IMG/VR virus record: IMGVR_UViG_2718217897_000008
DNA: 15,563 nt
Source: a virus
Taxonomy: Duplodnaviria; Heunggongvirae; Uroviricota; Caudoviricetes
Direction: 5' to 3' (one strand)
Position 1 is the stretch's first letter. Each line of letters begins with the position of its first letter. Below, piece after piece: positions 1 to 15,563 of this stretch. The notes under the pieces are model-generated. The model saw nothing but the letters and a program-made list of their open reading frames with translations. It searched no databases and was not told where the DNA came from. A program made the position numbers and the translations under genes.

Positions 1-750
1 TCAGTCAATTGTTTTGTTTATTCCATCTGTGACGCCGATTATTTTCTCAAAATAATGAGATGGCGTGACACCATAATAATCTTTAAATGCACATATGAAA
101 TATGAAGTACTGTTATAGCCACATTTCTGGGCTACGACATTGATAGAATAAGAGTTTGAAGTTATGAGTTTTTTTGCATACCTCATCCTAGTATCTCTCA
201 ATATTTCAGTAAATGACGTTCCTTCATCCCTTAATCTTTTTTTTATTAAACTTTCACTCGTATAAATCAATTCCGCAATATCTTTTAAATGCCATTGCCG
301 CTCAATATTAAAACTGATTATTCCAGTAATTTTACAGGTAAATGTATTTATATTTGTTAGTATAAATGAATTTACACTTTCGCGTTTTTTGAACATGGCA
401 AGTAAGGATATACATAGTCTTTCTTTTAACCAAAGGGAGTGTGAGTCTGCTATTTTAATCCCTTCAAACAGAGAAAAAACAAGCGATAATGGAGGTTCCT
501 CTTCAGCAATATAGCCATTCTTATCAAGAGTAAATTTGCCAGGCAGCTCATTATTCACGTCGATAAAAAAGGATAAACATGTTTTCTTATCTATATCAAC
601 AATTCTTAGTTTAGAGGGGCATACTGGTAACTCCCTTCTAATTTTGTCGCTTACAATAAACAATGAATTTTTTTTGAACGAGATAACTCTCCTGTTTATA
701 ATTAAATCAAATGATTGACAGATGAAAACTACGGAGCAAACATAATCCAT
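1..750 (-). CDS. appY: AraC/XylS-family transcriptional regulator, 249 aa (AppY-like)
   Basis: 249-aa ORF with a C-terminal AraC-type helix-turn-helix region (translation ...[24 protein letters not shown]...); length and position at the prophage end match AppY as I recall it; long AT-rich upstream region 751-1320. Confidence 0.75.
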
Positions 751-1425
751 CTTGCACCTATCATAAAATTAAAACAAGTTGATAGCAGTCAAATAACAAC
801 CAATTAAATACACAATCATAATCAGGATGATGTGCATTTATATTTTTATACACAAAATTATAGTTTGCAAATTTTAATAAATTTCATTTAAGATTAAATT
901 ATTATATGTATATTGTTTTTTATTCTAACGTATTTCAAAGTTACATTTTTCAACGCTTACTATACTTTTTATTAACATAAACTCACTACAACGCACCTGA
1001 AACCTCTTGCTATATATATGTCAACCGTTTGAATTTAAAATAAAAAGAGTATCATTTTTACTTGCATTTCTTATCAAGTCACATTCAACAACAGTAAAAA
1101 AACATTATTAGAACCATTCAATTAACAAAAAACCAACATCCAGCTTGCTTAATTTTTCTTTATTAAACGACATTGAAAATCAATTGATAAAATACATCTA
1201 AACAACCTTTTGGGGCGCAAAAGCATAACATCAAACAAACAAATAACACACCGAAAAAACTCACAATTAATAACCTATGATATACATACTGTTTATTATG
1301 GTTGAATAAGCCACTCGATATCTGGTGCTACGGAAGTGTCCACACGGTTTAGCAGCACCCGATACTTTTTCCAGGCTTCCAGCAACGAGTTTTCTTCCTC
1401 CGTTGCATATACAGCTCACCTTTTT

Positions 1426-1719
1426 TCACCCACGATTAACCAACAGCCAGACCAGCAGACACGCCACCACCGGCACAGCAAAATCCATCAGGCTTGCCAC
1501 ATCCCATGCACGTGTATCAAAACCGCCCCACCACGGCATATTCATTCGCTTGCCATGCCCGAACATTTCGATCCAGCGATATTCTGCCTGGGTGTGTTCA
1601 CGCGCAATGAAGAACGTACAACCGGCTATCGCCCCGTAAGCCCAGTTCCCGGTAAAAAGACCAATCAGTAGCTGCGCAGCCACAGCACAAAGCGCATGAA
1701 GGAAAGGTGTTATATCCAT
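1426..1719 (-). CDS. hypothetical small integral membrane protein, 97 aa
   Basis: ATG at 1719 preceded by a strong Shine-Dalgarno (AAGGAGGAG on the coding strand, 1721-1729); hydrophobic N- and C-terminal segments (AVAAQLLIGLF..., FAVPVVACLLVWLLV); the two overlapping plus-strand ORFs are low-complexity and look antisense. Confidence 0.55.
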   Translation of the reverse strand: MDITPFLHALCAVAAQLLIGLFTGNWAYGAIAGCTFFIAREHTQAEYRWIEMFGHGKRMNMPWWGGFDTRAWDVASLMDFAVPVVACLLVWLLVNRG

Positions 1720-1764
1720 TACTCCTCCTTTATCCGATATCGCTTCGGGAAACGGATAACAACT

Positions 1765-1962
1765 TTAATTCTGACTCAAGTTTTCGTTCTCAATTTCAGC
1801 ATCCCTTTCGGCATACCATCTTATAACGGCGGCAGAGTCATAAAGCACCTCATTACCCTTGCCACCGCCTCGCAGAACGGGCATTCCCTGTTCCTGCCAG
1901 TTCTGAATGGTACGGATACTCGCACCGAAAATGTCAGCCAGCTGCTTTTTGTTGACTTCCAT
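1765..1962 (-). pseudogene. nohD: terminase small subunit Nu1 remnant, 65 aa (N-terminal DNA-binding domain only)
   Basis: Translation MEVNKKQLADIFGASIRTIQNWQEQGMPVLRGGGKGNEVLYDSAAVIRWYAERDAEIENE matches the lambda Nu1 N-terminus; it diverges after about residue 59 and stops at 65 aa, whereas Nu1 is 181 aa, and no terminase large subunit follows. Confidence 0.8.
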
Positions 1963-2200
1963 TGTTCATTCCACGGCCAAAAACAGAGAAAGGAAACGAC
2001 AGAGGCCCAAAAGCTCGTTTTCAGCACCTGTCGTTTCCTTTCTTTTCAGGGGGTATTTTAAATAAAAACATTAAGTTACGACGAAGAAGAACGGAAATGC
2101 CTTAAACCGGAAAATTTTCATAAATAGCGAAAACCCGCGAGGTCGCCGCCCCGTAACCTGTCGGATCGCCGGAAAGGACCCGCAAAATGATAATAATTAT
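1963..2200. other. lambda-type cos site: cosB R-sites at 1991-2002, 2029-2040 and about 2086-2100; cosN 12-nt cohesive-end sequence at 2140-2151; right-end side beyond
   Basis: Reverse complement of 2140-2151 is GGGCGGCGACCT, the lambda cohesive end; flanking sequence matches the lambda left and right ends as I recall them; perfect 12-bp inverted pair AGGAAACGACAG / CTGTCGTTTCCT between cosN and the Nu1 start. Confidence 0.8.
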
Positions 2201-2350
2201 CATCTACATGTCACAACGTGCATCTACGCCATCAAACCACGTCAAATAATCAATTATGACGCAGGTATCGTATTAATTGATCTGCATCAACTTAACGTAA
2301 AAACAACTTCAGACAATACAAATCAGCGACACTGAATACGGGGCAACCTC

Positions 2351-2545
2351 ATGTCAACTAAGAACAGAACCCGCAGAACAACAACCCGCAACATCCGCTT
2401 TCCTAACCAAATGATTGAACAAATTAACATCGCTCTTGAGCAAAAAGGGTCTGGGAATTTCTCAGCCTGGGTCATTGAAGCCTGCCGTCGGAGACTAACG
2501 TCAGAAAAGAGAGCATATACATCAATCCAGAGTGATGATGAATAA
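2351..2545 (+). CDS. ylcI: small ribbon-helix-helix-like DNA-binding protein, 64 aa (YlcI/DUF3950-like; homolog of the lambda right-end ORF)
   Basis: 64-aa ORF starting immediately after the lambda right-end homology; basic N-terminus followed by a predicted strand-helix-helix pattern (IRFPNQMIEQINIALEQKGSGNFSAWVIEACRRRL). Symbol is tentative. Confidence 0.55.
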   Translation: MSTKNRTRRTTTRNIRFPNQMIEQINIALEQKGSGNFSAWVIEACRRRLTSEKRAYTSIQSDDE

Positions 2546-2906
2546 ACATCCCGGTTTCTTCCACCATCGCACCGGAAAAGCGACTATGAGGGTAACCCTG
2601 CGTCTGTCAGCACAGTAAAACCCGGTGTGCATCGTTTTTGATTATTCCCGCACACTCACGCAGAAGGAATTCCCCGTCGGGCTACGGTCATGGTTAATGC
2701 GGGAATACGGCGACGATACAGCGCAGCTAAAAGGGTAATGGACAGAAAGAGCGGTTTATTTCATTCCACAGGATTCTGAGTGCCCCCCCCTCCTCCAATA
2801 GGCTGAGCATCCACCTATATAGTTTTAATTTTCATCAATCCATTTAACTATCGTTTAATTGTTGTCACATAGGATTCTGCCGTTTTTAACAATGCAGGAT
2901 AATAAG

Positions 2907-3200
2907 ATGAAAAAAATGTTGTTTTCTGCCGCTCTGGCAATGCTTATTACAGGATGTGCTCAACAGACGTTTACTGTTGGAAACAAACCGACAGCAGTAA
3001 CACCAAAGGAAACCATCACCCATCACTTCTTCGTTTCGGGAATTGGACAGGAGAAAACTGTTGATGCAGCCAAAATTTGTGGCGGCGCAGAAAATGTTGT
3101 TAAAACAGAAACCCAGCAAACATTCGTAAATGGATTGCTCGGTTTTATTACTTTAGGCATTTATACTCCGCTGGAAGCGCGTGTGTATTGCTCACAATAA
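2907..3200 (+). CDS. borD: Bor outer-membrane lipoprotein (serum resistance), 97 aa
   Basis: Translation MKKMLFSAALAMLITGC... with a lipobox (LITGC) and near-identity to lambda Bor as recalled; the ORF-track start at 2859 is an upstream extension, the homologous start is ATG at 2907. Confidence 0.85.
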   Translation: MKKMLFSAALAMLITGCAQQTFTVGNKPTAVTPKETITHHFFVSGIGQEKTVDAAKICGGAENVVKTETQQTFVNGLLGFITLGIYTPLEARVYCSQ

Positions 3201-3210
3201 TTGCATGAGT

Positions 3211-3228
3211 TGCCCATCGATATGGGCA
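3211..3228. terminator. inverted repeat between convergent bor and Rz (possible bidirectional terminator, no clear U-tract)
   Basis: TGCCCATCGATATGGGCA dyad in the 31-bp gap between the bor stop (3200) and the Rz stop (3232). Confidence 0.35.
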
Positions 3229-3231
3229 GCT

Positions 3232-3693
3232 CTATCTGCACTGCTCATTAATATACTTCTGGGTTCCTTCCAGTTGTTTTTGCATAGTGATCAGCCTCTC
3301 TCTGAGGGTGAAATAATCCCGTTCAGCGGTGTCTGCCAGTCGGGGGGAGGCTGCATTATCCACGCCGGAGGCGGTGGTGGCTTCACGCACTGACTGACAG
3401 ACTGCTTTGATGTGCAACCGACGACGACCAGCGGCAACATCATCACGCAGAGCATCATTTTCAGCTTTCGCATTAGCTAACTCCTTCGTGTATTTTTCAT
3501 CCAGTGCAGCAACATCACGCTGGCGCATCTGCATGTCAGTAATTGCCGCGTTCGCCAGCTTCAGTTCTCTGGCATTTTTGTCGCGCTGGGCTTTGTAGGT
3601 AATGGCGTTATCACGGTAATGATTAACAGCCCATGACAGGCAGACGATGATGCAGATAACCAGAGCGGAGATAATCGCGGTTACTCTGTTCAT
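3232..3693 (-). CDS. rzpD: Rz inner-membrane spanin (i-spanin), 153 aa
   Basis: Near-identity to lambda Rz ([44 protein letters not shown]...); N-terminal transmembrane segment; ATGA start/stop overlap with the upstream endolysin. Confidence 0.85.
3291..3473 (-). CDS. rzoD: Rz1 outer-membrane lipoprotein spanin (o-spanin), 60 aa, embedded in Rz in another frame
   Basis: Translation [24 protein letters not shown]...[16 protein letters not shown]: lipobox plus proline-rich region characteristic of Rz1, nested within Rz. Confidence 0.8.
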
Positions 3694-4187
3694 TGCTGAC
3701 CCCACAAACAGATTTCACGCTCAATCTCACGACGAGTCATGAGACCTTTCCATTGCTTACCGCCAGCATATGTCCAGCGACGTAGCTGATCACATGCGCC
3801 TTTGATATCGCCCTGGTTTATTTTGCGAAGAAGCGTCGATGTTCTGAAATTGCCAGCGCCCACGTTGTAAACGAACGAGTAAAGAGCGCCGCGCGTTGTT
3901 TCCGGTATATCAACTTTTATGTACGGGTTAATTTGTCTGGCGACCGTGGCAAGGTCTTTATTCAGGAGGGCTTTGCATTCTGCTTTGGTATACGTTTTAC
4001 CGAGCATGATGTCTTTTCCTGTATGCCCGTGACATACAGTCCATACACCAACAATATCTTTGTATGGTATGTAGCTGACACCTTCCAGACCATCGTTACC
4101 ACTTGGGCCAGTGATTAACACTGATGCTATAGCAATTGCTCCGCCACCAATAGCAGCAGCAACGGCTTTTCGTAATGATGGAGGCAT
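3690..4187 (-). CDS. rrrD: SAR endolysin (phage 21 R-type lysozyme), 165 aa
   Basis: Gly/Ala-rich signal-anchor-release N-terminus ([20 protein letters not shown]) followed by the E-x8-D-x5-T lysozyme catalytic triad spacing ([17 protein letters not shown]); one-nucleotide overlap with the holin stop. Confidence 0.85.
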
Positions 4188-4402
4188 TATTCACCTCTCG
4201 CAGCCTTGCGCTTATCTTCTTTAATCTTGAAATAAAGGTTTGTCAGGTACGTCAGCAGGCCAAATACCAGGCTACCCAGCACACCTATTGCTGCCCACTG
4301 TGAGGGCGTGACTTTATCGAGCAGCTGTAAAAACCAGTAACCGGCACTACCTGCTGAGGTGCCATAGGCGACACCCGTTGTTAACTTATCCATGGATTTC
4401 AT
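4187..4402 (-). CDS. essD: pinholin (S21-type class II holin), 71 aa, with dual-start motif
   Basis: Translation [28 protein letters not shown]...[36 protein letters not shown]: two transmembrane segments, Met1/Met4 dual start typical of holin/antiholin pairs, GAGGTGG Shine-Dalgarno upstream; the ORF-track start at 4447 is an upstream extension. Confidence 0.8.
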
Positions 4403-4990
4403 AACCCCACCTCGCAGACAAAGCGGGTGTAAATTGAGGGAATACAACGTATCGCAAAAAAGCAGAAACGTAACAGACTCGGAGTCAGTGAATAACTCAG
4501 GTATTGAGTTATCAGCTAATATCGAGACTCAAAAAATGGAAAAACCAGCTCGACGGCGGGTTTAAGCTGTGTGACGAAGTAACCACTCTTAACAGCATAA
4601 CCAATTTTTTACGTACGTAAACCACTGAATGATATTTATGAGAATGCTACCGAGTGTTCAAAACACCACCACAAATATATAAGAAAACCTCAACAAATAA
4701 CCAATAAATAATTTCCGGCGTTATTTTTAGTTGATTTAAATTAAACCACTGAATTATAGAACCCCCATAAATAACAGCCATTAATATAAATTAGCTAATA
4801 GGTTTATTTTTGTTCAAATAAGAGCCATAAATAGGTTTCGATAGAAAAAGTTCAGATAAAAATAGAGATCTACTTCACAAATTAAATGAGAAACTAAAAC
4901 TTACATCTTGAAATAATCACATTGATTAGATGAATATTTATCGCGCAGTGACATCATTTTTTAATAATAGTTCAAAAAAAAGGGCTCACG

Positions 4991-6073
4991 ATGAAAAAAT
5001 TAACAGTGGCAATTTCTGCTGTAGCTGCATCAGTACTGATGGCGATGTCTGCTCAGGCAGCTGAAATTTATAATAAAGACAGTAACAAGCTGGATCTGTA
5101 CGGGAAAGTTAATGCCAAGCACTACTTTTCCTCTAACGATGCAGATGATGGTGATACTACTTATGCCCGTCTTGGCTTCAAAGGTGAAACCCAAATCAAC
5201 GATCAACTGACTGGTTTCGGTCAGTGGGAATATGAATTCAAAGGCAACCGCGCTGAATCTCAAGGTTCCTCCAAAGACAAAACCCGTCTTGCATTTGCAG
5301 GCCTGAAATTCGGTGACTACGGCTCAATCGATTACGGCCGTAACTACGGTGTAACATACGACATCGGTGCGTGGACTGACGTTCTGCCAGAATTCGGTGG
5401 CGATACCTGGACCCAAACAGATGTGTTCATGACTGGTCGCACCACTGGTGTTGCAACCTATCGTAACAACGACTTCTTTGGTCTGGTCGATGGCCTGAAC
5501 TTTGCTGCTCAGTATCAGGGTAAAAATGACCGCACTGACGTAACTGAAGCCAATGGTGATGGTTTCGGTTTCTCCACTACTTATGAGTATGAAGGATTCG
5601 GCGTGGGTGCAACCTATGCTAAATCAGATCGCACTGACGGTCAGGTCGCCTATGGTAAGAGCAAATTCAATGCCTCCGGCAAAAATGCGGAAGTATGGGC
5701 TGCAGGCCTGAAATATGATGCGAACAATATCTATCTGGCTACCACATATTCTGAAACTCAGAATATGACCGTTTTTGGTAATAACCATATTGCAAACAAA
5801 GCACAAAACTTTGAAGCAGTAGCACAATATCAGTTTGACTTCGGTCTGCGACCATCTGTTGCTTACCTTCAGTCAAAAGGTAAAGACCTTGGTGTTCATG
5901 GTGACCGAGACTTAGTCAAGTATGTCGATGTCGGTGCTACTTACTACTTTAATAAAAACATGTCCACTTTTGTTGATTACAAAATCAACTTAATTGACGA
6001 TAGTAAGTTTACCAAAACAGCTGGTATTGATACCGACGACATCGTCGCTGTAGGTCTGGTGTATCAGTTCTAA
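4991..6073 (+). CDS. nmpC: general porin of the OmpC/OmpF/PhoE family (NmpC/OmpD-like), 360 aa, apparently intact
   Basis: Signal peptide [23 protein letters not shown] then AEIYNKD...; porin family blocks ([26 protein letters not shown], ends ...VAVGLVYQF with C-terminal Phe); no interruption. Confidence 0.85.
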
Positions 6074-6080
6074 TCTGATT

Positions 6081-6123
6081 ACGAAAAAGATATGTTGCGG
6101 GAGGCTTTGCCTCCCCAACATAT
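6081..6123 (-). terminator. rho-independent terminator on the minus strand (candidate tR' of the late operon)
   Basis: 15/16-bp stem (ATATGTTG(C)GGGAGGC / GCCTCCCCAACATAT) with a 3-nt loop, followed on the minus strand by a CTTTTTCGT U-tract. Confidence 0.5.
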
Positions 6124-6211
6124 AAGTGGCTCCCTCAAGCCACTTCCTTTAGAAGCACAACCTTGCTTCTAACTATATAAACCTTCTGTTATATATTACC
6201 CTTTATTTTTG

Positions 6212-6236
6212 GGGGCGTCTCAACGCCCCATTTTTA
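6212..6236 (+). terminator. rho-independent terminator on the plus strand (likely nmpC terminator)
   Basis: GGGGCGT-CTCA-ACGCCCC hairpin followed by ATTTTT(AATAATTTTT). Confidence 0.55.
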
Positions 6237-6262
6237 ATAATTTTTAGTAAACAATTGGCATA

Positions 6263-6646
6263 TTAATTAGAGTTATTAACAACGATATCCATCTCTAACC
6301 GGATATCTAATGCCATTAACATCCCTTCAATTATGCCCTCAGCCTTCTGTAACCTTTTCCCGATATAACCATCAGAGCAGCAATGCTTACCTGCCAGTGA
6401 CATGAATGTCATACCGACTACATAATAATCTACTAATAAATCATGCAAATCGCTGTTGTTCTTTTTCAGACGGGCCATGCACCCGCAAATGATCATCGCG
6501 TCATCGTCACAACATTGTGGGCGAGATTTTACTTTTGAAGGAATTAATCCCTTAAAACCGGCGGCAATGGACGACCAGGTCACATCTTCATGATTATTAG
6601 CCGCCCACGCTCCCCAACGCTCAAGAACCATCTGAATATCACGCAT
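6263..6646 (-). CDS. quuD: late-gene antiterminator Q, 127 aa
   Basis: Translation [31 protein letters not shown]... with Cys-rich zinc-binding region; GGAG Shine-Dalgarno before the ATG at 6646 (the ORF-track start at 6661 is 5 codons longer); sits at the end of the nin region ahead of the late promoter. Confidence 0.8.
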
Positions 6647-6731
6647 CAACTTACTCCACAAAACTCAGACCAGAACGCCAATTACAAGCAAAAATCAACA
6701 AAACAGTATTAGTTGATTGTTATCTCTGACT

Positions 6732-6869
6732 TCATACTCCTGCTCCTGTCAGTGTTTTGGCGTAATTCTTCAGTATTCGGTAATCGGTCAAAACAGAACC
6801 GGGGAAACGATATAAGCGCAGGCGCATCCAGCGGTGGCGAAGAAGTTCTGCCATATAAAACTCAAACAT
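6732..6869 (-). CDS. ylcG: small nin-region protein, 45 aa (YlcG-like)
   Basis: Hand translation [45 protein letters not shown]; start overlaps the rusA stop (TGATG), conserved position between rusA and Q. Confidence 0.6.
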   Translation of the reverse strand: MFEFYMAELLRHRWMRLRLYRFPGSVLTDYRILKNYAKTLTGAGV

Positions 6870-7231
6870 CATTCATCTCCCTGTTCAGTGATGGTCAGTT
6901 CCAGCTTTCCACCTTTGACAACCGGCATCTTCACAACGCGGTAATCAACGACCTGAGCATCATCCAGCCAGAAACCTGCTTTGGTGAGTGCGTCAAAAGC
7001 GGCCTTTTGTAGATTATCCAGGTCACGGCGACGGCGATCCGGCATGTGACACTCAATGCGGATTTTCACAGGCATAGCCAGGCCGATATCCAGCATTGCG
7101 TTTTTAATGATTCGGGCGACGTTTTCGCGGTATGCCTGCCCCTCTGCGCTGATGTGCGTGCGCCCGCGATTATGGCGGTAATAGCGATTATTGCTCGGCG
7201 GCCAGGGTAATGTGATATTGTAGGTATTCAC
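6869..7231 (-). CDS. rusA: RusA Holliday-junction resolvase, 120 aa
   Basis: Translation [39 protein letters not shown]... matches RusA as recalled; length 120 aa; overlaps the ybcO stop. Confidence 0.85.
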
Positions 7232-7518
7232 GCCTTAATTACCCCCTCTTTCAGCCAGATAACCTGCGTTCTCGCCATACCTTCCAGCGCGCATTCTTTT
7301 GCATATCCAGCGTCAACAAAATGCGTGCGACGGTCGATCTCGTCGTGACAGGCAGAACATGCAATGGTGGCAATCAGGTCTGGCGGTTTGATACCGGTAC
7401 CGCACAATCCAGCCAGCCGGATATGTGCCAGTACAGACGTTTCAGGATTGCCATTACATACGCCAGGGATTCTTACCTGGCATTCCCGACCACGCGCTGC
7501 TTTTCTCAAATCAGCCAT
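7228..7518 (-). CDS. ybcO: DUF1364-family protein (putative nuclease), 96 aa
   Basis: Translation [38 protein letters not shown]... with Cys/His cluster; start overlaps the ninE stop by 8 nt; the ORF-track start at 7557 is an upstream extension. Confidence 0.7.
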
Positions 7519-7681
7519 GATTCCTCCTTGCTGCCAGTCGCAACCATTTTTTATCAACCAGGCTGGCGGTATATCCGAGCAGTGTTGGTATTTCGGATGG
7601 TTTCAGCTCAGGCTTACGCTTACGACGATTTGGTACTTTGTAGATGTGTCCGTTCATGACACGAATAAGCGGTGTAGCCAT
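7511..7681 (-). CDS. ninE: NinE, 56 aa
   Basis: Hand translation [56 protein letters not shown] closely matches lambda NinE; TAATG overlap with the ybcN stop; absent from the ORF track because it is under 60 aa. Confidence 0.8.
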   Translation of the reverse strand: MATPLIRVMNGHIYKVPNRRKRKPELKPSEIPTLLGYTASLVDKKWLRLAARRNHG

Positions 7682-8136
7682 TACGCCTCCTGCTTATCAC
7701 GCAGCAGCTGGAACTCGCAGCTCTGCGGAATAGTCAGGTGGCAGCCAATATTCATCGCCCAGGCTTCAACCTTACACAGGAAGACATACATCTCTCCGGT
7801 ATCAAGGTCGGAGGTATGGCGTAACGACTGGATAGTGGTGATATCACCGGTTACGACATCAACCAGGTCTTTGGTTTCATAACCGAGATATGTGTGTTTG
7901 AGAGCATCTTTTACCCAAGCTGGAGTGGCGAACGTTTTACCCCTGCTGATGAGGTATTCACTGATTTCGCTGTACCACATGTGGCTGAGTGCATTCTGGG
8001 AAAGACTGCGTTTCTCACGCCACGGTTTAAGCACCATGCGAAAGCATTTGCCCTCCTCCAGATAAGGCTGGATCTGCCGACCGATAGCGGTGAAGTTGCC
8101 GCGATGTAATTTGATGCCGTCTTGTGAGAGGTTCAC
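7681..8136 (-). CDS. ybcN: NinB-family protein, 151 aa
   Basis: 151-aa ORF with a GTG start preceded by GGAGGTG; position directly upstream of ninE as for lambda ninB. Confidence 0.75.
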
Positions 8137-8234
8137 GCTTCACCTCCGCAGAGGTCAAACGCTAGATGCAAAGAATTGCAGGTGCATTTCTGCATCTGTG
8201 AAGGGAGAAGAGAGTTTGGATTGTATGTGCGCAT
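8133..8234 (-). CDS. ylcH: small protein, 33 aa (YlcH-like)
   Basis: Hand translation [33 protein letters not shown]; its stop overlaps the ybcN GTG start (GTGA). Confidence 0.5.
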
Positions 8235-8257
8235 AAACGTCCCCGTTTAGCGCAGAA

Positions 8258-8286
8258 GTCACCGGAGTTGTTCAGGCTCCGGTGAC
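8258..8286 (-). terminator. 10-bp perfect-stem hairpin between ybcM and ylcH (possible tR2-like nin-region terminator or attenuator; weak U-tract)
   Basis: GTCACCGGAG - 9 nt - CTCCGGTGAC, followed on the minus strand by UUCUGCGCU. Confidence 0.35.
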
Positions 8287-8350
8287 ATAATTATGCCGTG
8301 TTGATTTCCCAAAATCAAAATCGATAGAATTGCTCCTTCTTAAAACACTT

Positions 8351-9148
8351 TTACTCTCTGGAAGCTTTTCTTATCTCTCTTGGTGTTATATTAAAACGAT
8401 TATGAAATCTTTCAGTAAAACGAGAAGGACACTTATAACCATTTTCTCTGGCAATCTCGCTTATAGGTTTTACCGTCGTTTGTATAGCAGACAACGCATT
8501 ATTTAACCTCACATCGTCCAGTATACTTTGGAAACTTACCCCCTCGCTTGCTAGACGGCGATGTAATGTAGAAACAGAAATGTAGAGATATCGAGCAACC
8601 TTGTTTGCTGTCCATTTTGTGCCGGGTTCGGATAGCAGCAGGTTATAACAACGACTTATCAATGATTGTTTACTATATGATAAAAGTAAATGATTAACAT
8701 GATTCACTCCTAACGAAAGTAGAACGCCCATTGCTAAGTGCTCCTGAATTTTAGTTGAGAAGCCTCGGGAAACAGATGTTTTTAGTTGCTCCCAACAATA
8801 TATTAACTCAGGATTCTGAGGTAAAAAGAAACTTGTTTTGTTACGTATTTGATCAGTTACCGTATAAAGTTTTTGGAAACTCTCAATTAAATCAATGGGT
8901 AAGTAAAGCATTTCTGCAAGATAAAGCCCTGCTTCAGGATAATTCTCAATATAAAATTCATAACCACAAGGAAATAATATTATTTGATTATTATCAACAG
9001 TTAAAGTATGCGTCTCCCAATTGATAACTTTCTTTCCCTGACGGATACGACACAAAGCTGGCATAAGAGGCTTAACCCTATGAATCTCATGATGTTTATG
9101 CATCCGTATTTCTTCGATCTTTAAGTTAGTCTTACCTCTTGCCAGCAT
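8351..9148 (-). CDS. ybcM: AraC/XylS-family transcriptional regulator, 265 aa
   Basis: C-terminal AraC-type HTH ([42 protein letters not shown]...[27 protein letters not shown]); AT-rich codon usage; directly downstream of ybcL. Confidence 0.8.
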
Positions 9149-9157
9149 ACTCTCACC

Positions 9158-9709
9158 CTACTTTATCTCATAAACTGGTGTTATCTCAGCGGTTGCGATT
9201 TTATTAGCATTAAGCATATAACCAACTAACGCTCCGCTGGAGTTAGAATCTACAGGAATCTTTTCAGTTTTTAGAGCCCATACTTTAAACTGGTAATGAT
9301 GTGGTTTATCTCCTTTAGGAGGACATGCGCCACCAAACCCAGCATAGCCAAAATCATTTCGGCCTTGAACAGCACCAGTCGGCAGTTTTGTTCCATCACG
9401 TCTCCCTGCATCAACGGGCAAATATGTTACTGTTGCTGGAATATTAACAACAGTCCAATGCCACCAACCACTGCCTGTAGGTGCATCTGGATCATATACA
9501 GTTACGGCAAAGCTTTTGGTACCTTCAGGAACACCAGACCAGGTTAATGAGGGCGATGTATTACCACCTTCACACCCAAATCCAGAAAAGACATGAGACG
9601 TTGTAAGTTGCTCTCCTGTTTTTATTTCATTACTAGTGACCTGAAATGCTGCAGCCTGCGCAGAAAATGTTATGAATGCCAATACAGTTGAAACGATAAG
9701 TGTTTTCAT
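9158..9709 (-). CDS. ybcL: secreted PEBP/RKIP-family (UPF0098) protein, 183 aa
   Basis: Signal peptide MKTLIVSTVLAFITFSAQAAA; PEBP-like motifs (YDPDAPTGSGWWHW, HHYQFKVWAL). Confidence 0.8.
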   Translation of the reverse strand: MKTLIVSTVLAFITFSAQAAAFQVTSNEIKTGEQLTTSHVFSGFGCEGGNTSPSLTWSGVPEGTKSFAVTVYDPDAPTGSGWWHWTVVNIPATVTYLPVDAGRRDGTKLPTGAVQGRNDFGYAGFGGACPPKGDKPHHYQFKVWALKTEKIPVDSNSSGALVGYMLNANKIATAEITPVYEIK

Positions 9710-9925
9710 AAAAACCTCTTTGTTATGACCTATCGTTATTTTATTTGATATTCCTTTATCTCATTATGCATAAAGGCGCAATGTTCATGCAAAAGCAATC
9801 ACAATTGTACCCCCAACCCAATTATTTGCCACAATATACACAAAGCACATTGATACTATCTAAAAACTCTGCTTTATTATTAGTAATACCTACGAAAGTC
9901 GGTGTTATTTTTTAACCTACCATTC

Positions 9926-9975
9926 AAAATACGTGACATACACCATTTTGCTCATAATAATTTGTCACGTATTTT
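9926..9975. repeat. 50-bp dyad element: perfect 13-bp inverted repeat AAAATACGTGACA / TGTCACGTATTTT with a 24-bp spacer
   Basis: Direct read: 9926-9938 is the exact reverse complement of 9963-9975; lies in the ybcK-ybcL intergenic region. Confidence 0.6.
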
Positions 9976-10173
9976 CAGTATTTGAATCTGCGACCAAGAG
10001 TTCTCACCTAACAAATGATTAAGATTGTATAGCTCATTTACTACCCCAATACAGCCGTACAAAACTCGCTTGTGGGAGCAAACAAAGTAATTACCCATTA
10101 AGTTTCGTCAAAGATAATTAATTCTGTCTTGCACTTTATCACCATAGCATAACTTAAAATCCGAGATCATTAT

Positions 10174-11700
10174 TTAGAAATAAATCTCACCATCAACCAT
10201 ATATTTGAGAGCACTTATCGCCTGCTGGGCGGATATTACTTTCATTAAAGGATAGTGTTTAAAAACAATGCCATTCATAAAATAGATATCACAGGTTTTA
10301 TTATCCGTATTAATTATGATTTTTTCGAATGTTTTATAGGCAAGTGTACGGCATAACTCTCGTCCATTTTTACTGGTTAAGTCAATAGCATAAAAATCAC
10401 TGAATGAATTTACACCTTTACTCTTCAAAGTTTTCAATGATACCGAAGCCCTTCGTAATTCCTTATCTAATAGTCTTATTTTCTCTGCTATAGCGGTAAC
10501 TTCAGGCGCGACAGACAATGCAACGATTAAATTATTAATTTTCATCTGAAGCTCAATAATTTTTAACTCTAAAGTTTCATTAGCATCTTTCTTGTTTTCA
10601 ACTGGTTGAATTTTGCTACAATTAAAAAGCAATTCATTAATGATATTATAATCAACCAAATCTCTTTTTATTGATGGCCTGTCACATCGATGTAATCTTC
10701 TCATCGGACAAACATAATAGCCATGCAAACTTCCAGATACCGCATGAACAATCATGGTATTACCACAAGCCTCACACTTCATAACTGTTCGAAGTAGATT
10801 TATTAGCATAGGATTCTTGCTACTATTGCTAATACCAAAAGGTGCCAACCGAATTTCCTGTACAGCGTAAAACAAATCATCTGATATGACTCTGGGATAA
10901 TAGCCAGCGATTTCACTTATCCCTTTCCCTCTTGCACGATATGAAGGTACGCATATACCTATCAGAGCTTTATTCGCTAATAATTTTTCAATTACAGAAG
11001 GTCCCCATGCACTTTCTTTTCCTGAGAAATTCTTTACAGCATGATCATTTAAATACTTGGCTATTGCATTCAATGAGCGCCTTTCCATCCTGAGTTTAAA
11101 AATTAGCTCAATAGTTTTCACCCTGTCGGGGTCTGGAACAAAAGCCGTTCTTTTGTCATCTAAGGAGAGCCATCTCGGACAAGACGCCGTCATAATCGTA
11201 CCTGATTCCAGTGCATCCTGCCGTTTTTTCTTCCATGATAATTTAACCCGACTTGACTTTATCTCGCTTTCTTCATTTGCCCTTTGTGCTATAAGTATGG
11301 CTTTTATTAATGAATATGGCTCATTCAAAGAGTCAATATTATAGACTGTATTGTCGCAAAGAGTTATAACATCAATACCGTGATTCAAAATCAATTTCAG
11401 ACGTTCAATCGCTTCACCGACTTTTTCTCTTGAAAGTCTGTCCAGACTTTCAACTAACAATGTAGTTCCTGGCAATATATAACCATGCTCTATAGCATCT
11501 AAAAATTCCGAAAAAGCTCCTGATTGTGCATGCTTTCCTTTGAATGCACTTAATCCTAAATCTTCATATGTTATGGTATCAAGATAATAATCACTATTTA
11601 CCTTTAATCATTCAGCAATAAGTCTTCTCTGTCGGTTTAATGAGTCGCCAGACATCTGACCTGGTGATGAAAATCGCATATATGCTATGGCTTTTTTCAT
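10174..11700 (-). pseudogene. ybcK: large serine recombinase (resolvase domain, recombinase domain, zinc ribbon) interrupted by an in-frame TGA at codon 31
   Basis: ATG at 11700 gives MKKAIAYMRFSSPGQMSGDSLNRQRRLIAE (catalytic-serine motif) then TGA at 11608-11610; the same frame continues LKVNSDYY...ILPGTTLLVESLDRLSRE... into the 433-aa ORF, total 508 codons. The track ORF begins at a TTG. Confidence 0.75.
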
Positions 11701-11884
11701 GGTGACACCTGCTAACGTATGCTTTTATAAACCTTAGTGGTGGGATATAATTTTTGTTTAATTTTTATTTAAAAAGACAATTAAGGTCACATTATCTTGA
11801 ATATACAACAATAATCGTATTGCAATTTTCTTACGCCATAATCTTGAAAGCACAAAAGAATACATAAAAAATAAAGACATTAAC

Positions 11885-11924
11885 AAAAAGCATAAAACGA
11901 GGCTCATATAAATATAAGAGCCTC
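11885..11924 (-). terminator. rho-independent terminator downstream of emrE
   Basis: GAGGCTC - 12 nt - GAGCCTC hairpin followed on the minus strand by GUUUUAUGCUUUUU, about 30 nt after the emrE stop. Confidence 0.55.
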
Positions 11925-11954
11925 CATATTTTAGTCGTTTAGAAACAAATTATT

Positions 11955-12287
11955 TTAATGTGGTGTGCTTCGTGACAATAAATTAATAACCAACACACCG
12001 GCACAAATCAACATCATGCCTATAATGGCTGGCAGGTCCAGCCGTTGGCCGAAAAATCCCCATGACAGTAAGCTAATCAGGACAATACCGACTCCTGACC
12101 AGATACCATAAGCAATCCCTGTAGGAATATAAGCCAGCGTCTGAGCTAATAACCAGAATGATGCACAATAACAAATAATTGTACCAACAGATGGCCATAA
12201 CCGTGTAAAACCTTCTGAAAACTTCATTAAGGTTGTACCAATGACCTCTGCAAGTATTGCACCACCAAGATAAATATAAGGGTTCAT
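11955..12287 (-). CDS. emrE: EmrE small multidrug resistance (SMR) efflux transporter, 110 aa
   Basis: Translation MNPYIYLGGAILAEVIGTTLMKFSEGFTRLWPSVGTIICYCASFWLLAQTLAYIPTGIAYGIWSGVGIVLISLLSWGFFGQRLDLPAIIGMMLICAGVLVINLLSRSTPH, recognised as EmrE (four TM helices, conserved membrane Glu in TM1); the ORF-track start at 12341 is an upstream extension. Confidence 0.9.
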   Translation of the reverse strand: MNPYIYLGGAILAEVIGTTLMKFSEGFTRLWPSVGTIICYCASFWLLAQTLAYIPTGIAYGIWSGVGIVLISLLSWGFFGQRLDLPAIIGMMLICAGVLVINLLSRSTPH

Positions 12288-12302
12288 AGCATATTCTTTC
12301 CT

Positions 12303-12337
12303 GTTCAAACTGGAGAGAATTGTACTACAGTTTGAAC
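12303..12337 (-). promoter_or_regulatory. 10-bp perfect inverted repeat in the ren-emrE intergenic region (terminator for ren or leader structure for emrE)
   Basis: GTTCAAACTG - 15 nt - CAGTTTGAAC, 16 nt upstream of the emrE start codon on the transcribed strand. Confidence 0.4.
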
Positions 12338-12354
12338 TCAACTCACCTGTTTCA

Positions 12355-12657
12355 TCATTGTGTTCCCATTGATGTTCTTTTATATACCCTCAGTACCCGT
12401 TTCATCGCGGCACTCTGGCGACACTCCTTAAAAATCAGATTCGTGCTCACCTTTCCTTCCCGTTCTTCTCTGGTAGCGAACCGGTAATACACCGTTCGCC
12501 AGACCTTACCATCAACGACCAGGATTCCTGCCCGCGCCATTTTAGCCGCAGCCTGATTTATGCTGGTTACGGTTGCACCTGTTACCGCGGCAACGTCCTG
12601 TGCACAGAAGCTCTTATGCGTCCCCAGGTAATGAATAATTGCCTCTTTGCCCGTCAT
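12355..12657 (-). CDS. renD: Ren (Rex-exclusion resistance protein) homolog, 100 aa
   Basis: Translation MTGKEAIIHYLGTHKSFCAQDVAAVTGATVTSINQAAAKMARAGILVVDGKVWRTVYYRFATREEREGK... closely matches lambda Ren as recalled; ATGA overlap with the upstream P fragment. Confidence 0.8.
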   Translation of the reverse strand: MTGKEAIIHYLGTHKSFCAQDVAAVTGATVTSINQAAAKMARAGILVVDGKVWRTVYYRFATREEREGKVSTNLIFKECRQSAAMKRVLRVYKRTSMGTQ

Positions 12658-12890
12658 ACACTTGATCCTTTCAGTCCGAACTTAGCTTTGATTTCTGCGA
12701 TCTTCGCCAGAGCCTGTGCACGATTTAGAGGTCTACCGCCCATGACAGGAAGTTGTTTTACTGGTTCAGGTATCGCCTCACCACGGTTAATTCGCGCGGT
12801 CATACAGGACAGTTCATCGGCAGCCTTGCGCCGTAATTCCGCGTCAGTCAGCGCATTGGCCCGCATGTTCTGGTACAAGTTGGTAACCAA
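12654..12890 (-). pseudogene. C-terminal fragment of replication protein P (helicase loader), about 80 codons
   Basis: Translation ...VTNLYQNMRANALTDAELRRKAADEL..TARINRGEAIPEPVKQLPVMGGRPLNRAQALAKIAEIKAKFGLKG..V matches the lambda P C-terminus; homology runs a few codons further upstream (AYW) to a stop at 12918-12920; no O gene or N-terminal P present. Confidence 0.8.
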
Positions 12891-12900
12891 CCAGTAAGCA

Positions 12901-13266
12901 ATGGGATATGCCTCTGGTTATGTCTGGTTGAATCCACCATACAGCAATATTTCCCCTTTTGTGAAAAAGGCAGCCACTGAAAACAAATTCAGCAGTGTGG
13001 GATGTGTAATGTTATTACCTGCTGACACATCTGTCGGATGGTTTCATGAAGCGATACAAACCGCCAGTGAGGTCAGATTCATCACGGCAGGACGACTGGC
13101 ATTTATTAACCCACTCACCGGGAAACACGTCAGTGGAAATAATAAAGGCTCGATGCTCATTATCTGGCACCCATACCCCCGTACACACTGCCACTTTACG
13201 ACCGTTGATCGTGGAGAGTTGATGGCGTTCGGCTCAAGGATTCTTGCCCGTCGGGAGGCTGCATGA
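12901..13266 (+). pseudogene. 5'-truncated phage Dam-family N6-adenine DNA methyltransferase fragment, 121 codons
   Basis: Begins essentially at the catalytic NPPY motif (GYVWLNPPYS) followed by a ...MLLPADTSVGWFHE...VRFITGRLAF pattern typical of phage Dam methylases; the N-terminal SAM-binding half is missing and the ORF abuts the P fragment head-to-head. Confidence 0.6.
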
Positions 13267-13346
13267 CAACCACGGAATGCATTTTTCTGGCAGCGGGCTT
13301 CATATTCTGTGTGCTTATGCTTGCCGACATGGGACTTGTTCAATGA
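13263..13346 (+). CDS. candidate small hydrophobic peptide, 27 aa (single predicted TM helix)
   Basis: ATG overlaps the upstream stop (ATGA) and its stop overlaps the next ATG (ATGA); translation MTTTECIFLAAGFIFCVLMLADMGLVQ. Below the ORF-track size cutoff; speculative. Confidence 0.35.
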   Translation: MTTTECIFLAAGFIFCVLMLADMGLVQ

Positions 13347-13558
13347 CACCTCAGCAGGAAAACGCCCTTCGCAGCATAGCCCGTCAGGCTAATTCTGAAA
13401 TCAAAAAAGCCAGACAGCAGTTTCCGGATAAAAACGTCGATGACATTTGCCGTAGCGTACTGAAGAAGCACCGCGAAACGGTAACGCTGATGGGATTCAC
13501 ACCGACTCATTTAAGCCTGGCGATCGGCATGTTAAACGGCGTCTTTAAGGAGCGATGA
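13343..13558 (+). CDS. hypothetical phage early-left protein, 71 aa
   Basis: Translation MTPQQENALRSIARQANSEIKKARQQFPDKNVDDICRSVLKKHRETVTLMGFTPTHLSLAIGMLNGVFKER; translationally coupled to the upstream small ORF; the track ORF starting at 13244 is an out-of-context extension. Confidence 0.5.
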   Translation: MTPQQENALRSIARQANSEIKKARQQFPDKNVDDICRSVLKKHRETVTLMGFTPTHLSLAIGMLNGVFKER

Positions 13559-13656
13559 ACATGAAAAGCAAAATCATCAGGGAGCTACAGGCTCCTTTTT
13601 TATTATTCGCATTCACCCTCAAGCGTATTAACCAACAATTCAGGGATTAATGGAAG

Positions 13657-13875
13657 ATGGCAGACATCATTGATTCAGCATCAGAAATCGAAGAATTACA
13701 GCGCAATACAGCAATAAAAATGCGTCGTCTGAACCACCAGGTTATATCTGCCACTCATTGTTGTGAGTGTGGCGATCCCATAGATGAACGAAGACGCCTG
13801 GCCGTTCAGGGTTGTCGGACTTGTGCAAGCTGCCAGGAGGAGATCGAACTTAAGAACAAACAATGGGGATTGTGA
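13657..13875 (+). CDS. TraR/DksA-family C4 zinc-finger protein, 72 aa
   Basis: C-x2-C ... C-x2-C pattern (CCECGDPIDERRRLAVQGCRTCASCQ) with preceding acidic helix, typical of phage/plasmid TraR-like proteins. Confidence 0.7.
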   Translation: MADIIDSASEIEELQRNTAIKMRRLNHQVISATHCCECGDPIDERRRLAVQGCRTCASCQEEIELKNKQWGL

Positions 13876-13922
13876 TGGCCTCAAAGCAGCAAATTTCAAC
13901 ATCGTCCAACTGAGGTGTAAAA

Positions 13923-14201
13923 ATGTTCAGAATCATTTTGCCTAACACCTGGTACGTCGACCACCACGGCACTCCCTGCAAAATCCTGCGTTCTACCCAC
14001 AACAAAGTTCACTACATCCGAAAAGGCAGAACATGTATCGCCAGCATGTTCCGCTTTAATCATGACTTTGAACCTGTGAATAAAGCTGATGCAGATCGGA
14101 TAGCAGAAGAGATCGAAACGGCAGAACACATTAAGAAGTTACGTGACATGCGTTCAAAAAGCAGAGGTAACCATGGAATCATACAGCCTCACACTCGATG
14201 A
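13923..14201 (+). CDS. hypothetical protein, 92 aa
   Basis: ATG at 13923 preceded by a GAGGTG Shine-Dalgarno at good spacing; no recognisable motif. Confidence 0.5.
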   Translation: MFRIILPNTWYVDHHGTPCKILRSTHNKVHYIRKGRTCIASMFRFNHDFEPVNKADADRIAEEIETAEHIKKLRDMRSKSRGNHGIIQPHTR

Positions 14202-14544
14202 GGCCTGTCAGTTTCTTAAGATATCCAGACCAACCGCCACCAACTGGATACGAACAGGCCGCCTACAGGCAACACGTAAAGATCCAACCAAGCCAAAATC
14301 TCCTTACCTCACAACACGGCAAGCCTGCATTGCGGCGCTTCAGTCTCCGCTGCATACTGTCCAGGTGAGCGCGGGTGATGGCATAACAGAGGAAAGAAAA
14401 TGTCACTCTTCCGCAGAAATGAAATATGGTATGCCTCGTATTCGCTCCCGGGCGGGAAACGAATTAAGGAATCTCTTGGCACAAAGGACAAGCGGCAAGC
14501 TCAGGAGTTGCACGACAAGCGAAAAGCAGAACTCTGGCGAGTAG
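14173..14544 (+). CDS. xisD: excisionase-like (AlpA/Xis-family HTH) ORF, unusually extended so that it overlaps the integrase start by 145 nt; possibly a pseudogene
   Basis: [31 protein letters not shown] has the Xis/AlpA-type HTH; GAGGT Shine-Dalgarno before the ATG at 14173 (the track ORF starts 10 codons earlier at 14143); the frame runs on to 14544, well past the int ATG at 14400. Confidence 0.5.
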
Positions 14545-15563
14545 AAAAGCTAGGGGATTTACCTGATGTCACTTTTGAAGAGGCCTGCCTAAGATGGCTT
14601 GAGGAAAAAGCTGATAAAAAATCTCTCGATTCAGATAAAAGCCGGATTGAGTTCTGGCTTGAACATTTTGAGGGTATAAGGCTTAAAGATATCTCGGAGG
14701 CAAAGATTTACTCTGCTGTAAGCAGAATGCATAACAGAAAGACGAAAGAAATATGGAAACAGAAAGTTCAGGCCGCCATCAGGAAAGGTAAAGAACTGCC
14801 TGTTTATGAACCAAAGCCAGTACCAACTCAGACAAAGGCAAAGCATCTTGCCATGAGAAAGGCCATTCTCCGTGCTGCAGAACGCGACTGGAAGTGGCTG
14901 GAAAAAGCGCCTGTCATCAAGATACCAGCGGTCAGAAACAAGCGAGTCAGATGGCTGGAAAAGGAGGAAGCAAAACGCCTTATTGATGAGTGCCCCGAAC
15001 CACTGAAATCTGTCGTCAAGTTTGCGCTGGCAACTGGTCTGAGAAAGTCGAACATCATAAATCTGGAATGGCAACAAATCGACATGCAGCGACGAGTTGC
15101 CTGGGTGAATCCAGAAGAGAGCAAATCAAACCGCGCCATTGGTGTGGCGCTGAACGATACCGCCTGTAAAGTGTTGCGTGATCAAATAGGCAAGCATCAC
15201 AAATGGGTGTTTGTACATACCAAGGCGGCTAAGCGAGCAGATGGAACATCAACGCCTGCGGTCAGGAAGATGCGCATCGACAGCAAGACATCATGGCTAT
15301 CAGCTTGTCGTCGTGCAGGAATTGAAGATTTCCGTTTCCATGACCTCAGACACACCTGGGCAAGCTGGCTGATTCAGTCAGGCGTCCCATTATCAGTGCT
15401 TCAGGAAATGGGCGGATGGGAGTCCATAGAAATGGTTCGTAGGTATGCTCACCTTGCGCCTAATCATTTGACAGAGCATGCGAGGAAAATAGACGACATT
15501 TTTGGTGATAATGTCCCAAATATGTCCCACTCTGGAATTATGGAGGATATAAAGAAGGCGTAA
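14400..15563 (+). CDS. intD: P4-type tyrosine integrase, 387 aa
   Basis: C-terminal catalytic-domain motifs (...[10 protein letters not shown]..., [23 protein letters not shown] with the catalytic Tyr); N-terminal arm-binding-like domain; terminal position next to xis. Confidence 0.9.

Follow-up and report, generated by a model that had tools for sequence, protein, structure and literature searches.

Packaging of phage lambda DNA starts at cosN-cosB and ends only when a downstream cosQ-cosN is reached (PMC9026076). The best published account of what such a cos site does when it is located in the bacterial chromosome concerns the cryptic prophage DLP12 of E. coli K-12 (PMC3945230). De Paepe et al. 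found frequent recombination between lambda and this prophage, with 10 of 19 junctions adjoining cos, and suggested breaks at the cos sites of lambda and DLP12 as a possible cause; all tested recombinants were viable, including those that carried the nu1 gene of DLP12 (PMC3945230). Another relevant system is the Rpp protein of the Gram-negative cos-type PICIs, which blocks packaging of the helper phage (PMC6739421). Here the cos end of a stretch of 15,563 nucleotides, called the window below, is compared with these systems. An earlier note on the same DNA had pointed out an intact cos site beside a truncated Nu1 gene, and had proposed two functions for this arrangement.

The cos end of a DLP12 prophage

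The window is the cryptic lambdoid prophage DLP12, from appY to intD, according to the annotation of the matching regions in strains REL606 and GF4. When a set of 5,426 complete genomes of E. coli was searched by megablast with the whole window, many strains were about 100% identical to it but always as two to five joined pieces spread over 19–27 kb, and one deletion aside the window is 99.96–100% identical to the DLP12 of REL606 and GF4. The order in REL606 and GF4 is appY, tail-fibre remnants, the small terminase, ylcI, iss/bor and rzpD-rrrD-essD, continuing with an ompC-like porin, quuD, rusA and, further on, ybcK, emrE, ren, P', intD and tRNA-Arg, and the DLP12 of K-12 is arranged likewise and contains nohD. 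The map of the window runs opposite to that of lambda, with appY at positions 1–750 on the minus strand and intD at 14400–15563 on the plus strand. What is considered here is the DLP12 end that carries cos and nohD, and the E. coli strain has a DLP12 of the B/GF4 type.

The cos site, described as fully intact in the earlier note, is a complete one of the lambda type, located at positions 1963–2181 on the minus strand with cosQ, cosN, I2, R3, I1, R2 and R1 all present. From cosQ to the start of Nu1 (start codon at 1960–1962, minus strand) an ungapped alignment with lambda shows seven substitutions in 219 bp and no indels. Six of these fall between the subsites, at positions 2168, 2079, 2050, 2018, 2008 and 1977, and cosQ, cosN, I2, R2 and R1 are identical to lambda. 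The packaging-termination subsite cosQ (2175–2181, minus strand) has the exact motif GGGTCCT, which equals lambda bp 48473–48479 when counted from the right end, and it is spaced from cosN as in lambda with a single substitution between the two. The cosN core of 16 bp (2138–2153), taken by the definition in PMC9026076 as the cohesive end plus 2 bp on each side, matches lambda at 16 of 16 positions. Its 12-nt cohesive-end sequence, GGGCGGCGACCT, is located at 2140–2151 and is identical to that of lambda, and the same cosN is found in the DLP12 of K-12, in the DLP12 of REL606 and in phage PhiR34_1. I2 (2102–2134, minus strand), corresponding to lambda bp 18–50, is required for cos cleavage, and replacement of these base pairs in lambda is lethal for packaging (PMC4856287).

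The cosB part consists of R3-I1-R2-R1, with R2 inverted relative to R3 and R1, and its spacing to cosN is exact. R2 (2028–2043) and R1 (1987–2002), both on the minus strand, match lambda at 16 of 16 positions each, and the interval between R3 and R2 that contains the IHF site I1 (2044–2086, minus strand) has two substitutions, at 2079 and 2050, both of which are also present in the complete phage PhiR34_1. R3 (2087–2102, minus strand; lambda bp 50–65) is identical at 15 of 16 positions, the exception being a G54 to A change at window position 2098. In the review by Murialdo and Feiss R3 is given as bp 50–65 with TerS contacts at bp 55–63, and the packaging-defective R3 mutations are found at bp 56, 58 and 59 (PMC9026076). 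G54A lies just outside the contacted segment, at a position that is conserved among R1–R3. The same allele is present in phage PhiR42_1 and in 76 IMG/VR contigs, and 49 of these contigs have a full Nu1 of 181 aa. G54A was therefore rejected as an inactivating lesion; its apparent neutrality follows only from its occurrence in complete prophages and phages.

The cos site is 100% identical over 213 bp to that of PhiR42_1, a complete lambdoid phage with a genome of 48.7 kb that contains Nu1, A, W and B. A literature search returned no paper describing the PhiR phage series, and the viability of PhiR42_1 is taken from its record only. Judged by this identity, the cos site of the window is probably competent for terminase cleavage and initiation of packaging. 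The earlier note had described it as preserved nearly base for base, and the seven differences in 219 bp agree with this, but such preservation is not special to cos, which is 96.8% identical to lambda as compared with 96.7% (26 differences) for the whole lambda-homologous block of 782 bp at 1781–2562. The cos site is not more conserved than its flanks, and nothing suggests that selection keeps it here. The region is also widespread, being contained in 4,784 of the 5,426 complete E. coli genomes in a median of two copies and a maximum of 13.

Truncation of Nu1 by a deletion

The truncated small terminase gene occupies positions 1765–1962 on the minus strand and encodes 65 aa, namely Nu1 residues 1–60 with a K48R substitution, followed by NLSQN and a stop codon. 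The translation is MEVNKKQLADIFGASIRTIQNWQEQGMPVLRGGGKGNEVLYDSAAVIRWYAERDAEIENENLSQN, where the NLSQN tail is encoded by the junction and is unrelated to Nu1. The product matches Pfam PF07471 (Phage_Nu1) with E=3.7e-37 over profile positions 1–64 of 164, and the gpNu1 DNA-binding domain in PDB entry 1J9I with E=3.6e-37; it also matches 6HN7_B (TerS residues 1–98) and 7LW0, the crystal structure of a 56-residue construct of the same domain. In tblastn searches Nu1 matched the window only with residues 1–62, and neither gpA (E<=1) nor gpW of a complete relative gave any match in the 15.5 kb. A Nu1 reduced to its DNA-binding domain and the loss of the large terminase, both stated in the earlier note, are thus borne out.

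The stub keeps the recognition helix (residues 17–24), the wing (31–39) and all of the published homodimer-interface residues of the DNA-binding domain, I11, F12, G13, S43, A44, I47 and A51. An AlphaFold model (pLDDT 77) contains beta1, alpha1, alpha2, the wing and alpha3 (43–61) with no residues past alpha3, and it superposes on 7LW0 with an rmsd of 1.2 A; 1J9I and 6HN7_B are also matched by the model, and a fold search gave a weaker match to RppC (6HLK) with a TM of 0.72. The stub probably folds as a wHTH dimer. The central oligomerisation domain and the C-terminal TerL-binding domain (layout in PMC9026076) are absent. The upstream sequence and the start context are those of functional phages, and the region contains four promoter-like sites as compared with 5.5 expected from shuffled sequence.

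Comparison with the GF4 locus by BLAST locates the junction. Window positions 1–1782 correspond to GF4 locus positions 501–2282 with 100% identity, and positions 1781–15563 correspond to 6117–19898 with four mismatches and one gap, leaving an overlap of 2 bp, AA, at 1781–1782. In the parental sequences GAGAACGAAAA continues into GCTGCG in Nu1, and GTTGATGAA continues into CTTGAGTCAG at the 3' end of a gene with a tail-fibre domain, and only the AA is common to both. Measured against GF4 the deletion amounts to 3,836 bp, and against REL606 to about 6.5 kb, and it took Nu1 from codon 61 onward, a J fragment and tail-fibre genes. Its right-hand partner is the last 53 nt of the tail-fibre-domain gene (1730–1782, minus strand), mapped by the GF4 annotation (gene at locus positions 2230–2934) together with the BLAST coordinates, and this sequence is out of frame in the stub. 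The deletion also put an ORF of 97 aa (1426–1719, minus strand) directly downstream of the stub. The annotations of REL606 and GF4 list its product as a hypothetical protein, and it matches phrog_1443 (function unknown) with E=2.8e-58 and no Pfam family; it is a neighbour outside cos.

A single illegitimate deletion with a 2-bp overlap would account for the loss of the whole stretch between Nu1 codon 61 and the 3' end of the tail-fibre-domain gene. The cos site and the 65-aa stub would then be what the deletion spared, the stub as a by-product and cos intact because the deletion missed it. A further reason for the intact cos would be that DLP12 is young, or that recombination keeps it similar to active phages.

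The left breakpoint, after GAGAACGAAAA at about lambda bp 371, is common to at least eight other deletions with differing right-hand partners. These partners include the hairpin between E and FI, the stf repeats, four others, and, in a different DLP12-like remnant, a terminator located upstream of an NfeD-like gene; a further one is presumably a site just upstream of gene D. As the breakpoint is found in at least nine independent deletions, deletion formation is not fully random. A second peak of breakpoints is located after GGCAAGGGTA at codon 36/37 (about bp 300), with the C-terminus of stf and cosB itself, as a tandem duplication, among the partners, and also what is presumably a portal-gene fragment. 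The overlaps are 2–4 bp where the parental sequences are known. A break at codon 36 destroys the wHTH fold, and the hotspots therefore look mutational rather than selected. A quasi-site for Hin, Gin, Cin or Pin, or a secondary lambda att site, was also considered for the breakpoint and was dropped after a poor match by eye to the consensus sequences.

Among the 5,426 complete E. coli genomes no single alignment spanned the junction, and the sole match of at least 80%, strain LR-28, consists of two separate pieces of a differently rearranged DLP12. The 65-aa product is absent from the called gene products of an index of 153 billion genes, and a 28-mer across the junction is absent from GTDB-representative genomes and from JGI metagenome contigs. 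The allele thus appears to be private, and the comparative data give no sign that selection has maintained the architecture; its uniqueness argues against long-term selection and would still be compatible with a recent adaptive event. A protein search with the stub found 146 short proteins from the Nu1 N-terminus, nearly all in clusters of one to few, with breakpoints spread from residue 5 to residue 89, many of which destroy the domain. A conserved family of orphan Nu1 DNA-binding domains was rejected because of these tiny clusters and scattered breakpoints. Twelve other loci with a truncated Nu1 were checked, and 11 of them keep both cosQ and the cohesive end, while the sequence of the twelfth begins within cosN and could be scored for neither. 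Several of these loci have no exact R1, R2 or R3. An intact cos beside a Nu1 stub is the usual state of a decaying lambdoid prophage.

Packaging, interference and recombination

Most probably the locus is the cos end of DLP12 as left by a one-off deletion, a case of ordinary prophage decay in which any residual action is passive. The premises of the earlier note, a complete cos, a Nu1 with only the DNA-binding domain and no gpA, hold, but neither of the functions that it proposed is supported. It is extremely improbable that the junction arose in sequencing or assembly and that the real genome has an ordinary B/GF4-type DLP12, even though the junction was found in no other public sequence searched, since the parental sites share only 2 bp while misassemblies usually span long repeats, and independent assemblies show clean deletions of a comparable kind that have this left breakpoint. 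One of the proposed functions was cos-dependent hitchhiking; on this reading a lambda-type terminase provided in trans by a helper would package the adjacent chromosome or the whole DLP12 remnant, and cos would be kept as a transfer signal. Every subsite is present with the correct spacing, a complete phage has an identical cos, and lambda docL particles reportedly arise when host DNA is packaged in situ from the cos of a prophage. Lambda also transfers plasmids whose only lambda element is cos (PMC6739421), but the requirement for a downstream cosQ-cosN to terminate packaging (PMC9026076) speaks against hitchhiking. From the cos of the window packaging would head toward the Nu1 side, that is to appY, ompT and envY, and in GF4, the closest complete genome, no second cosN-like sequence was found at three or fewer mismatches in 25 nt within the 49.9 kb in this direction, which hold core genes only (ompT, envY, nfrAB, cus, pheP, ent/fep). 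The DLP12 copies of REL606 and GF4, which are identical to this one, have only a 66-nt fragment of xis and part of P and lack O, and one would therefore not expect the element to excise, replicate or form concatemers; a monomer of about 15.5 kb would be far under the lambda packaging size, and in other remnants R-site mutations accumulate. With no second cos in the 49.9 kb of GF4 and no replication module, hitchhiking is left unsupported, and mobilisation of the locus by a helper is very unlikely. Initiation by a helper terminase is plausible from the sequence of the site. A superinfecting or co-resident terminase of the lambda type should bind cosB and nick cosN, and at most packaging would start toward appY-ompT-envY and, with no downstream cos, finish improperly, making productive packaging of the locus unlikely. 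At most, defective particles like docL could form. Membership among the PICIs or other satellites was rejected, as AlpA, a primase and an Rpp-like gene are all missing from the annotations of identical DLP12 copies and cosB is of the phage type; the only PICI-defining feature present is the integrase (intD).

The other function suggested for the locus was a dominant-negative decoy, with the stub occupying the cosB of incoming lambdoid phages. A related reading is that the stub forms an Rpp-like heterodimer with the DNA-binding domain of TerS, and in either case it would poison the assembly of the terminase. The fold would be suitable, with the recognition helix, the wing and the whole dimer interface retained, a 56-residue construct of the same domain having been crystallised (7LW0), and the model matching 1J9I, 7LW0 and more weakly RppC (6HLK); the upstream sequence and start context are as in functional phages, and Rpp itself is a mimic of the TerS DNA-binding domain able to block lambda packaging (PMC6739421). 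The allele is private, however, the orphan domains form no conserved family, the second breakpoint peak at residue 36 destroys the fold, the promoter-like sites do not exceed the number expected from shuffling, and binding of lambda TerS to DNA is weak and non-specific in vitro (PMC6739421). The predicted Kd is about 28 uM for the homodimer of the DNA-binding domain as compared with 0.37 uM for Rpp-TerS, and it is the extra dimerisation domain that lets Rpp out-compete the self-association of TerS (PMC6739421); the stub has neither this domain nor the central oligomerisation domain of TerS, and should therefore compete poorly. A PADLOC match of the stub to mad1 of the MADS system (E=1.8e-12) was rejected as a defence lead, since full-length Nu1 of lambda and of PhiR42_1 matches mad1 equally well, a generic HTH similarity at the domain level, and no other mad components were found in the two neighbouring ORFs that were scanned. 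With a private allele, scattered Nu1 breakpoints and weak DNA binding by lambda TerS, the decoy function finds no support and is very unlikely. Rpp-like interference by the stub is conceivable but unsupported, and the comparative data do not seem to point to a defence role. We would give hardly any credence to the combined scheme, in which the stub, transcribed together with the late genes of DLP12, is a minimal inhibitor of the Rpp type while the chromosomal cos acts as a terminase sink, together lowering the phage yield.

Nicking of cosN would break the chromosome and thereby stimulate its recombination with the phage. A reading that is compatible with prophage decay, and that we hold tentatively at somewhat less than an even chance, is that the chromosomal cos, together with the near-identical block of 782 bp, forms a break-stimulated exchange point with lambdoid phages, where infecting phages swap lysis, bor and ylcI-cos modules. 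Such exchange has been shown between lambda and the DLP12 of K-12 (PMC3945230), and the window is 96.7% identical to lambda over 1781–2562 and shares 98.5–99.3% identity with several complete phages. However, only about 370 bp of homology are left on the Nu1 side, and exchanges with a right-hand crossover there should be rarer than in K-12. Recombination would also be an effect of the site and not evidence for a maintained function, and the reading is carried over from the DLP12 of K-12.

As an instance of prophage decay the locus adds one state to those of a prophage carried by most E. coli, and as such it matters little. It illustrates that cryptic prophages retain cis-acting phage sites long after the loss of the matching enzymes, and that the retained sites are targets for incoming phages, by cutting at cos and by recombination from which mosaic phages arise. 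Should the stub interfere with the packaging of lambdoid phages, a defence factor would have arisen from a terminase gene in a single deletion step, and if it acted like Rpp, a decaying prophage would have turned its own terminase fragment into a defence.

Comparison with known systems

Cosmids and cos-bearing satellites such as SaPIbov5 and P4 are all mobilised by a cis-acting cos and a helper terminase alone, but they replicate to multimers or concatemers, which gives two cos sites at a packageable distance, and the DLP12 remnant has no replication module. A related case is that of the lambda docL particles, which Sternberg and Weisberg reportedly described in 1975 as the result of in situ packaging from a prophage cos. 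In that case a single chromosomal cos is said to be used by the terminase, with packaging rightwards into host DNA. The terminase reportedly comes from the same induced prophage, and the particles are said to be defective, with no proper right end, and not to be a maintained transfer mechanism. A paper in NAR from 1992 is also said to deal with cutting of the E. coli chromosome by lambda terminase, at nohA and nohB.

The Rpp of the Gram-negative cos-type PICIs, for example EcCICFT073, is like the stub a small TerS-like wHTH protein with the dimer interface of the TerS DNA-binding domain. Unlike the stub, Rpp has an additional dimerisation domain and a higher affinity for TerS. It also recognises a different cosB and belongs to an inducible, replicating island, and it is conserved across species, none of which applies to the locus in the window.

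The cos sites of lambda, PhiR42_1 and PhiR34_1 have the same subsite order, orientation and spacing as that of the window, but in the window the site is a single chromosomal copy that lacks a terminase and a partner cos and is not part of a concatemer. The same locus and gene order are found in the cos-nohD (nohB) region of DLP12 (qsr') in E. coli K-12 and B. Outside the deletion the window is about 100% identical to the DLP12 of the B/GF4 type, and cos is near-identical. K-12 has a full NohD of 181 aa that works in lambda (PMC3945230), and in B/GF4 a Nu1 of 191 aa is fused to a J fragment, whereas in the window Nu1 ends after residue 60 and a further 3.8–6.5 kb is missing. The feature is thus of an already known kind, the cos end of DLP12, in what appears to be a unique state of decay.

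Recurrent deletion breakpoints in Nu1

Codon 60/61 of Nu1 (lambda bp ~371), directly after GAGAACGAAAA, is the left breakpoint common to at least nine independent deletions, and the right-hand partners of these deletions differ from one another. The break is found at window position 1781/1782, in the compared loci L084, L087, L090, L094, L096 and L100–L102, and in the short Nu1 N-terminal proteins P0001–P0004, P0010 and P0019. For several of the deletions the right-hand partner begins at the base of a GC-rich hairpin, and where the parents are known the junctions overlap by 2–4 bp only.

A second recurrent breakpoint is located at codon 36/37, after GGCAAGGGTA, and is followed by eight different tails (loci L097, L098 and L099, proteins P0091–P0098 and P0104). 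Among its partners in DNA are the C-terminus of stf, with a GGTA overlap, the part of cosB directly ahead of R2, and a putative fragment of the portal gene. Helix 3 is removed by this break, which therefore cannot be attributed to selection for an intact DNA-binding domain.

Rearranged loci and variation in cosB

L098 (2816–3744) contains a tandem partial duplication within a prophage, in the order cos, Nu1(1–36), a second copy of cosB starting just before R2, and then full-length Nu1, A and W, and is in effect a doubled cosB/R2–R1 array 5' of an intact terminase operon. The Logan contig L099 (1–3425) has its first bases inside the cohesive-end sequence (GGCGACCT...) and contains cosB, Nu1(1–36) and a stretch of about 230 bp, presumably portal gene, and these adjoin a module of integrase, AlpA and Bro-N; it is thus a satellite-like island adjoining a cos remnant.

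The G to A change in R3 at window 2098 (lambda bp 54), a position conserved among R1–R3, is a common natural allele. It is shared by the DLP12 of E. coli B, by phage PhiR42_1 and by 76 IMG/VR contigs, in most cases alongside an intact Nu1, whereas the DLP12 of K-12 instead has C53 to T. In the cos regions of several other Nu1-truncated remnants (L094, L096, L097, L100 and L101), an exact R1, R2 or R3 has been lost while cosQ and the cohesive end are still retained, which is consistent with a relaxed constraint on cosB after loss of the terminase.

Neighbouring genes and related systems

An ORF of 97 aa (window 1426–1719, minus strand, phrog_1443; no Pfam family) has a strong Shine-Dalgarno sequence and lies 45 nt downstream of the stop codon of the Nu1 stub, on the same strand. 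It follows the Nu1 stub in the window, but a gene with a tail-fibre domain in the B/GF4 DLP12. In L001 (6696–7596), a DLP12 variant of E. coli LR-28, a gene of the DNA primase family is present as a fragment that overlaps nohD (180 aa), and two small hypothetical genes follow, one being the 97-aa ORF; this arrangement suggests a satellite-derived insertion beside Nu1.

The Nu1 DNA-binding domain matches the PADLOC model mad1 of the MADS defence system, a profile of 60 positions, with E-values of about 1e-11 to 1e-12, both in the window (1768–1962, minus strand) and in lambda and PhiR42_1, where Nu1 is full-length. MADS therefore has as its first gene a Nu1-like wHTH that stands alone. In the window nmpC, the ompC-like porin gene of DLP12 (4991–6073, plus strand), is an intact ORF of 360 codons, uninterrupted as in GF4, whereas the K-12 copy is split by an IS5 and the REL606 copy by an IS1.
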